Source of the DNA: an uncultured bacterium
GTDB lineage: Bacteria; Omnitrophota; Gorgyraeia; Ghiorseimicrobiales; Ghiorseimicrobiaceae
Direction: 5' to 3'
Assembly: GCA_913009335.1 (NCBI GenBank)
Contig: CAJVXN010000005.1
Location: 110-64,109 of the forward strand
Length of the DNA stretch: 64,000 nt
Positions 10,386-10,774 of the stretch are shown here, one piece after another. The notes beneath the pieces are model-generated. The model searched no databases and was not told where the DNA came from. It worked only from the letters and a program-made list of their open reading frames with translations. The position numbers and the translations under genes were made by a program. The stretch's first letter is position 1. Each line of letters opens with the position of its first letter.

Positions 10386-10774
10386 TGTGGATAAGCTGTG
10401 GATAAGCTGTGGATAACTCCCTTAGTTTCGAACTCTTGCCCTGTGGATAACTCCATGCTAAGGTGTTATGGTTATGGGTTGCGGAGTGGAGGTGTTGCCC
10501 GCGTCTCCGCACTCCCTCAACCAAATATATCATCTCTTCCTTATTATATATAGTATATAAATACTTTATATTATATATAAGGAGTATATATACAAAGGAA
10601 ATCAAGATTTCCGCGTATATATCAGCGCATAAGCTCTAAATACCTGTACCTATAGGGCTATAAAATAAGTAGAATATGGAGTTTAATGCTTCAACTCCTT
10701 AACCCGTGAGCCTAAGTTATCCACAGGTTATCCACAGGTTACTAACAGGTTATCCACAGGCAAAGTTATCCACA
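10386..10774. promoter_or_regulatory. putative replication origin: 4 + 4(5) consensus DnaA boxes flanking a GC hairpin and an AT-rich unwinding region
   Basis: TGTGGATAA at 10386, 10397, 10408, 10443; TTATCCACA at 10717, 10728, 10750, 10766 plus variant TTACTAACA at 10739; AT-rich tract about 10536-10620. Confidence 0.5.

Follow-up and report, generated by a model that had tools for sequence, protein, structure and literature searches.

Arrays of DnaA boxes in an intergenic region

The DNA analysed here (the window) is a stretch of 64 kb from a 66,997-bp phage contig, identical copies of which occur in marine metagenomes and in a metagenome-assembled genome (MAG) labelled Candidatus Omnitrophica. 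Leftward genes begin at about 11.5 kb and rightward ones at about 12 kb. The first of the leftward genes (10931..11446, minus strand) encodes a protein of 171 aa that always stands immediately upstream of the element considered here and serves as its synteny anchor. That element, a module at 10386-10774, consists of two clusters of the DnaA-box 9-mer TTATCCACA separated by a spacer with a GC-rich hairpin and a run of alternating TA; beyond it, on the left, are small open reading frames (ORFs) and then a gene for a CHAP-domain protein.

The module contains eight exact copies of TTATCCACA, four per side, the sides being inverted relative to each other. On the minus strand the copies start at 10386, 10397, 10408 and 10442 and form a left array (10386..10450) with start spacings of 11, 11 and 34 bp; on the plus strand they start at 10717, 10728, 10750 and 10766 and form, together with one variant (TTACTAACA), a right array (10717..10774) with spacings of 11, 11, 11 and 16 bp. 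The gap between adjacent boxes within phased runs is exactly 2 bp, and the repeat unit is an 11-mer, (G/C)TTATCCACAG, which reads GTTATCCACAG in the right array and CTGTGGATAAG/C in the left. The variant (10739-10747) has three mismatches, yet keeps the 11-bp register, its place in the right array being between boxes 2 and 3. Boxes with one or two mismatches are absent from 10300-10900: the pattern is all or none. Across the whole window exact copies number 11 against 0.51 expected (0 of 100 shuffles gave 11), and 8 of these 11 fall within the 389 bp of the module.

The original prediction had described an oriC-like origin made of opposed clusters of perfect boxes around an AT-rich core. Its box positions and the opposition of the clusters stand, and the exact match to consensus holds for all eight boxes, the variant that it reported being the 9-mer with three mismatches. 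It did not mention a phased pair at 32141-32160 (see below) or a lone exact box at 45899, inside a 1282-aa ORF (43680..47528). The lone box lies just ahead of a serine-rich low-complexity stretch (45940-46100) of that ORF.

The 266-nt spacer between the arrays has a folding z-score of -3.9 relative to shuffled versions. Its GC-rich hairpin (10469..10523; core TGCGGAG / CTCCGCA) is followed by a candidate DNA-unwinding element (10524..10605), an 82-bp tract of alternating TA runs with an AT content of 83% vs 64% for the window as a whole. Both features had been predicted, the tract at about 80 bp. The tract is flanked by the arrays, whose inner boxes are 73 and 111 bp away; its minus-strand end is TATATAATAAGGAAGAG, as it is in relatives, and an imperfect palindrome occupies 10537-10600. 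The remainder of the spacer (10606..10716) has two small hairpins, one forming part of 10585-10621 and the other at 10677-10698 (GGAGTT...AACTCC). A protelomerase-type target was considered on account of the central TA run and rejected, since complementarity of the palindrome reaches only 74% and an enzyme of this type was not seen.

The upstream border of the module is the intrinsic terminator of the gene for the 171-aa protein (10818..10850, minus strand), a GCCGAAG/CTTCGGC hairpin with a T-run. At the other end the left array stops 4 nt short of the ribosome-binding site (AGGAG) of a possible 35-aa ORF (10262..10369, minus strand), the first frame past the module, for which there is no family match. 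The region between is non-coding. Gene callers place no gene in L121 over the equivalent of window positions 10124-10930, and in two ENA records of the same phage (L122 and L123) the sole call is a 41-aa ORF at the far edge (10127-10252). No ORF is conserved across the module among relatives, and a frame of 55-79 aa running through the hairpin and the left array was rejected for want of such conservation; the ORFs that the original prediction had set aside as spurious are thus treated likewise here. Rfam gave no family in the whole window at gathering thresholds and none in 10100-11000 at E <= 1. Apart from the boxes, the repeats of 10100-11000 come in two copies only, at chance level, and form no multi-copy family; blastn ('distant') of 9500-12000 against the cultured phages of INPHARED returned only a trivial match of 58 bp.

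Conservation of the module in related phages

Relatives were found by an alignment-based search; a single-protein search of viral contigs with the 171-aa neighbour gave nothing. The 171-aa protein has 44 homologues (45-67% identical) in syntenic contexts, and at least 13 related phages of ~63 kb carry the module at the equivalent place in this synteny. In the 13 relatives that share the module order the neighbouring protein is 44-65% identical, and the 13 distinct versions run from terminator through a cluster of box-like 9-mers, about 100 nt, a (TA)n tract, a GC hairpin of varying sequence and a second cluster to a ribosome-binding site. Terminators equivalent to that at 10818..10850 stand ahead of the box cluster in all relatives. 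The (TA)n tract measures 40-69 nt and mostly ends ...TATATAATAAGAG; the hairpin keeps its relative position in most relatives, with modest z-scores in single-sequence folds. RNAalifold, applied to nine relatives, gave no consensus structure, the alignment being out of register. Boxes with at most one mismatch occur at 7.17 per kb inside the module region vs 0.46 outside, a 16-fold difference.

The boxes themselves are less constant. Their sequence drifts among relatives (TTATGCACA, TTGTCCACA, TTATACACA, TTATCAACA and TTATCGACA, with further variants TTATTAACA and TTACTAACA) and their number ranges from 0 to 12; the constant core across relatives is the TA tract plus the hairpin. In the relative L146 (1440-1680), TGTGGATAA boxes (10 exact, 2 near-exact) are interspersed with TGTGAGTAA 9-mers at an 11-bp period; these boxes are on one side of the TA tract, and the other side has none.

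Such variation bears on the identity of the binding protein. The 9-mers could be iterons of a phage-encoded binder – for example the primase-polymerase (PrimPol)/helicase encoded at 57435..60005, or the 171-aa protein – in which case they would match the DnaA box by coincidence or mimicry and the origin would be of the SaPI or P4 type. Origins of SaPI and P4 have an AT-rich region with a set of short repeats on either side, in a replicon that supplies its own primase(-helicase). The layout at 10386-10774 equals that of SaPI origins: repeat sets flank an AT-rich tract and the replicon has its own primase. Moreover, variants are uniform within a locus (TTCTCCACA twice in L127, TTATCGACA twice in L147, TTATACACA three times in L139, TTATCAACA three times in L141), L147 has an unrelated 18-mer in three copies, and the conserved gene for the 171-aa protein always adjoins the module. 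However, local slippage by 11 bp accounts equally well for the uniformity within loci. All eight copies match the DnaA consensus exactly, and a 22-mer of the same repeat (next section) is present in at least 120 viral contigs, almost all of them protein-unrelated, as well as in bacterial oriCs. No protein resembling domain IV of DnaA was found in the window, and the 171-aa protein lacks a recognisable DNA-binding fold. In SaPI and P4 the repeats are specific to the replicon's own helicase and the origin adjoins the helicase gene; here the repeat is the universal DnaA box, and its arrays are far from the PrimPol gene. A phage-encoded binder thus seems to us very doubtful.

A second observation from the relatives concerns contig ends. 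In several of them (L124-L130) the contig ends in or just past the (TA)n tract, and L124 ends in AGATCGGAA, the start of an Illumina adapter, about 95 nt past the tract. The simplest explanation is that low complexity disturbs assembly here; alternatively, the place may be one where the DNA often has a physical end. Such an end would suit an element comparable to the injection-stop region (iss) of T5, or a terminus or packaging element, with boxes that hold or stall the DNA on entry or that mark the end of a genome. T5-like phages have eight organised DnaA boxes in their injection-stop region (bioRxiv 10.1101/866236). The features shared with T5 are eight DnaA or DnaA-like boxes and their setting, a lytic phage's long non-coding stretch rich in repeats; TTATCAACA and TTATTAACA, two T5 variants, are also found among the phages of this family, and many viral arrays adjoin terS or terL. 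T5 box pairs, however, are spaced by 3 bp rather than 2, and the boxes lie in inverted repeats of the terminal repeat, where their function is itself hypothetical. Complete relatives of ~63.8 kb have been assembled in different circular permutations, with no fixed end at this place, and the terminase genes of this phage are 17 kb away. Contig breaks are explained by low-complexity (TA)n, of which there is a second run at 11520-11548. We consider a role in DNA entry or packaging highly improbable.

Distribution of the tandem 22-mer

The tandem 22-mer was found in at least 120 viral contigs with GC contents of 33-66%, of which almost all have no protein relationship to the window. Bacterial genomes served as a control: at least 120 of them, from many phyla, contain this 22-mer, and there it is a mark of oriC next to dnaA/dnaN; among 100 flanking ORFs, 26 encode DnaA and 15 DnaN. 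In a Candidatus Omnitrophota MAG – the same phylum as the bin of this phage contig – it abuts the start of dnaA. The bacterial control therefore identifies the 22-mer as a genuine signature of DnaA-binding arrays. A further instance is the 3.8-kb plasmid pSOE2 of Candidatus Pantoea edessiphila (L237), in which six copies make up at least 12 tandem perfect boxes.

Viral arrays are intergenic in 112 of 120 cases. Families encoded next to them include terminase subunits, portal, ParB_N, RusA, rolling-circle Rep and AAA_25 helicases, while dnaA and dnaN are absent among the 25 most frequent neighbour families (of 59). Contamination of viral contigs by host oriC was rejected on this basis, DnaA and DnaN being dominant neighbours in bacteria.

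In three viral lineages (18 loci) arrays stand close to primase-helicase genes and to other iterons. The array starts 103 nt behind the primase-helicase gene in the L062 type (6 loci) and 14 nt behind it in the L082 type (4 loci), both enzymes combining PriCT_2 or Toprim with AAA_25; in the L052 type (8 loci) an AAA_25 helicase is encoded at 1.4 kb. The first two types thus show the adjacency that is typical of SaPI and P4. At L082:4650-4730 and L062:10760-10990 box pairs are combined with element-specific iterons (GGTCA/GACCC runs; GACCTCG repeats), a mixture behind the primase-helicase gene reminiscent of P1 and RK2; these loci look like composite, plasmid-like origins in viral contigs.

After dereplication to 72 viral groups, 14 arrays are co-directional with transcription and 12 anti-directional, so there is no bias of box direction, and an orientation-dependent transcription roadblock is not supported as a general role. 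Arrays in divergent intergenic regions outnumber those in convergent ones by 12 to 1.

Arrays of this kind could also act as a sink. Like datA, and amplified by phage replication, they might titrate or inactivate host DnaA, shutting down host initiation or reporting the state of the host, and would start no replication themselves. A sink would profit from perfect, highest-affinity boxes without weak sites, from the plasticity of box number (up to 12, and one-sided, in L146) and from the many genomic contexts in which arrays are found in other phages. It would leave the conserved TA tract, the hairpin and the fixed syntenic position unexplained, and titration fits an origin as a side effect rather than as an alternative to it. 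As the sole function of the module we find it hard to credit.

Boxes at a promoter

The phased pair at 32.1 kb differs in setting from the module. A sigma-70 promoter (TTGACA-18-TATACT; 32103-32132, score 11/12) is followed after 8 nt, at its start point, by two phased boxes (GTTATCCACAGGTTATCCACAGG, 32141-32160), the whole site (32103..32160, plus strand) standing upstream of a protease/major-capsid gene (32247..34850). A box at or just past a promoter, as expected of DnaA-regulated promoters, is found at 32103-32160 only, and by position the pair looks like an operator. Given this operator at a late promoter, DnaA probably also modulates phage transcription.

In more than 30 relatives the corresponding stretch is the coding 3' end of the upstream ORF and has no promoter-box site; the combination of promoter and boxes is therefore a recent, lineage-specific insertion. 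The cassette, of ~70 bp, replaces the 3' end of the ORF region 30844-32094, the tail of which ('...FEPA...') survives as non-coding sequence at about 32170-32200.

The site raises the question of whether the module at 10386-10774 is itself a DnaA-controlled transcription region and not an origin. The arrays would then be operators, roadblocks or loop anchors through which host DnaA sets the operon from 10369 (small ORFs, a CHAP lysin-like gene and others), and the TA tract would act as a promoter of unconventional type or as a UP-like element. Several observations point in this direction. The same phased pair follows a consensus promoter at 32.1 kb; the gene upstream of the module has its own terminator, so that the downstream genes need a promoter in this region; and the end of the TA tract is TATAAT-like in most relatives. 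Read toward the next gene, the downstream cluster always shows TTATCCACA, and it borders directly on the ribosome-binding site of that gene; in several relatives TAGAAT stands 11 nt ahead of the first box of the cluster, and promoter-proximal arrays are present in the viral contigs L010 and L073. Against this, no sigma-70 promoter (-35/-10 pair) scoring at least 10/12 is found on the minus strand, the relevant one, within 10386-10774, even though other promoters of the phage are canonical. Eight perfect boxes around an 82-bp (TA)n tract far exceed the needs of an operator, the viral arrays have no preferred box direction, and the absence of the 32.1-kb site from more than 30 relatives makes operator use a recent addition. 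A purely transcriptional role for the module is possible, but on balance we think it unlikely.

A candidate origin of replication

We see an even chance that 10386-10774 is the core of a phage replication origin with host DnaA as its origin-binding protein, a reading based on sequence comparison. Host DnaA would bind the eight perfect boxes with high affinity, and the 2-bp gaps would place the bound molecules on one helix face per array, favouring oligomerisation. The opposed arrays would bracket and constrain the 82-bp (TA)n tract, the least stable duplex of the region, which would then melt, with the adjacent GC hairpin bounding the bubble or extruding. Either the phage primase-polymerase/putative helicase or host DnaB would be loaded next. 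Every step – DnaA binding, melting of the TA tract, the choice of helicase and origin activity as such – we infer from the letters of the DNA.

Several lines of evidence argue for the origin. Boxes are concentrated far beyond expectation, in the window and still more in the module. Phasing and opposition match the description of E. coli oriC, where sites in an array are exactly 2 bp apart and face one direction and two arrays are opposed (PMC4451416). The tract is highly AT-rich, the spacer is structured and the region is non-coding. Module order and box enrichment are kept in 13 relatives. The 22-mer flags bacterial oriC and sits near viral primase-helicase genes, and viral arrays are mostly intergenic, have neither dnaA nor dnaN among their 25 top neighbour families and favour divergent over convergent regions. 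Canonical promoters are found elsewhere in the phage and none on the minus strand of the module. Finally, looping allows distal DnaA boxes to work from afar and whichever way they are oriented (PMC6669920), and there is precedent in P1, F, RK2 and pSC101, whose origins use host DnaA boxes, P1 having an array at each end (PMC4980987).

The gene content of the phage is also consistent with use of the host protein. When all 558 stop-to-stop ORFs of the whole window down to a length of 40 aa were compared with DnaA, the best match had E = 0.7 (phmmer --max), the queries being a verified DnaA of an Omnitrophota MAG (L188) and its domain IV alone; the claim that no dnaA gene lies nearby can thus be extended to the entire window. 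Precomputed Pfam lists for the early regions contain no DnaA, and the early regions on record gave no match to DnaB or to a DNA polymerase; an SNF2 helicase, an RNase H, an RNA ligase and a DNA methylase are recorded there. The candidate helicase/primase for the origin is the primase-polymerase encoded at 57435..60005 (minus strand), in the original prediction a PrimPol-helicase: the N-terminal PrimPol part is confirmed by an archaeo-eukaryotic-primase (AEP) domain and PriCT_1, while the C-terminal half has only weak P-loop matches (E 0.035), which leaves the helicase part putative.

Other observations weigh against an origin, or at least against one built on the boxes. With no box in L132 and one in L133, boxes are not indispensable to the role of the conserved core, and the gene-proximal cluster flips its orientation in L128, L137 and L139. 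Both arrays point away from the TA tract, which lies between them and not, as in chromosomal oriC, outside. The phased pair at 32141 is clearly associated with a promoter, many arrays in other phages adjoin terminase rather than replication genes, and the primase gene of this phage is far from the module. The cumulative GC-skew minimum, which the original prediction had proposed as a check, does fall at 10-12 kb, but since the gene strand switches at the same place it is not independent evidence. By the orientation rule of E. coli (R1 and unwinding element), moreover, no run of GAT-type DnaA-trios stands beside the array ends.

By the same rule, the 16 bp downstream of either array contain no NTN run; the only runs are of the permissive NAN type, namely AAGCAGGAG, in overlap with the ribosome-binding site, and CATAACCATAAC, located 14 nt 5' of the inner left box. 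The basal unwinding system of chromosomes comprises a box, a spacer of at most 16 bp and at least three DnaA-trios of the 3'-GAT-5' type (PMC8287927). Because the arrays face away from the tract and, by this rule, no such trio run is present, the mechanism is probably not that of the chromosomal system, which also weighs against the origin.

Relationship to known origins

The module resembles chromosomal oriC in its cluster of TTATCCACA boxes, its phased arrays with 2-bp gaps, the opposition of two arrays and the AT-rich element. It differs from it in that all sites are perfect and low-affinity sites are missing, in that its neighbours are the 171-aa and CHAP-domain proteins and not dnaA/dnaN, and in being carried by a phage of ~67 kb. 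Without adjacent dnaA/dnaN or a recognisable trio run, and with arrays that face outward, the module is not, on sequence criteria, a member of the chromosomal oriC family. The layout of a DnaA-dependent origin that had been predicted is borne out by the phased opposed arrays and the AT tract, in a module conserved in at least 13 relatives; the earlier interpretation as a whole is supported in part.

Arrays of DnaA boxes at the borders of the origin of a mobile replicon are shared with the theta origins P1 oriR and RK2 oriV. Unlike these iteron-plasmid origins, the module has no second iteron family, and no gene for a Rep-type initiator was found, which sets it apart from the iteron-plasmid type as defined. 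Among phages, an origin with DnaA boxes and AT repeats has been predicted by Ori-Finder in Pseudomonas phage vB_PseuGesM_254 (PMC11512268); unlike that single-genome prediction, the module is backed by conservation within a family and by a wide survey of arrays.

DnaA boxes with an AT-rich tract as the origin of a mobile replicon are a decades-old idea, and the surprise for specialists is moderate. New are the combination of exclusively perfect boxes, outward arrays and a (TA)n core with hairpin, in a replicon that has its own PrimPol and neither trios nor Rep iterons at this place; the conservation of the module across a phage family; the breadth of such arrays in uncultivated phages; and a second use at a promoter. 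If the origin is real, environmental phages of ~63 kb, possibly of Omnitrophota, initiate replication with host DnaA and their own primase-polymerase, and the same cassette is widespread in uncultivated phages and satellites. Phage origins in metagenomes could then be recognised by a simple mark in their sequence, origins could be predicted independently of the host, and there would be a test case of how DnaA opens DNA where the chromosomal DnaA-trio module is missing. The copy beside the promoter suggests that the DnaA status of the host is also read or manipulated by phages.

A more speculative extension, to which we assign a low probability, is that phased perfect-box arrays are a portable 'DnaA-recruitment cassette' of unrelated uncultivated phages (at least 72 dereplicated viral groups) that here also functions as a replication-coupled timer of late genes. 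The cassette may have two uses in this phage, one at the origin and one, recently inserted, at the start site of the capsid-gene promoter. Replicating origins may titrate host DnaA off the operator and so turn late genes on, which may amount to a timer made entirely from a host protein.

Neighbouring genes and minor observations

The 171-aa protein has no Pfam or PHROG match and no fold match. Canonical sigma-70 promoters stand at 11548 (minus strand) and 11834 (plus strand). The spacer of the leftward early promoter (TTGACA-17-TACCAT; 11490-11548) is itself a (TA)8 run, and the contigs of two relatives (L133/L143 and L146) end 620-870 nt upstream of the gene for the 171-aa protein, approximately at the position of this run.

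To the left of the module, an 87-aa protein (9069..9332, minus strand) with the motif FHSDPGHAWLE has homologues in two array-bearing and otherwise unrelated viral contigs (L042 and L016); as a lead it was dropped, gene order being different in these contigs and the protein belonging to no family. The N6/N4 DNA methylase (54231-55703, minus strand) matches its family in two separate stretches and has a weak LAGLIDADG match at residues 163-226, which may indicate an inserted homing endonuclease or intein. Right of the module, ARAGORN predicts a 90-nt tRNA-Asp (GTC) at 12031-12120, where Rfam at its gathering threshold gives no tRNA; it may be intron-containing or degenerate. Just right of the point of divergence (12090-12944, plus strand) are encoded a DnaJ-domain protein and a homologue of Cpn10/GroES, and the Cpn10 gene is present in all relatives.

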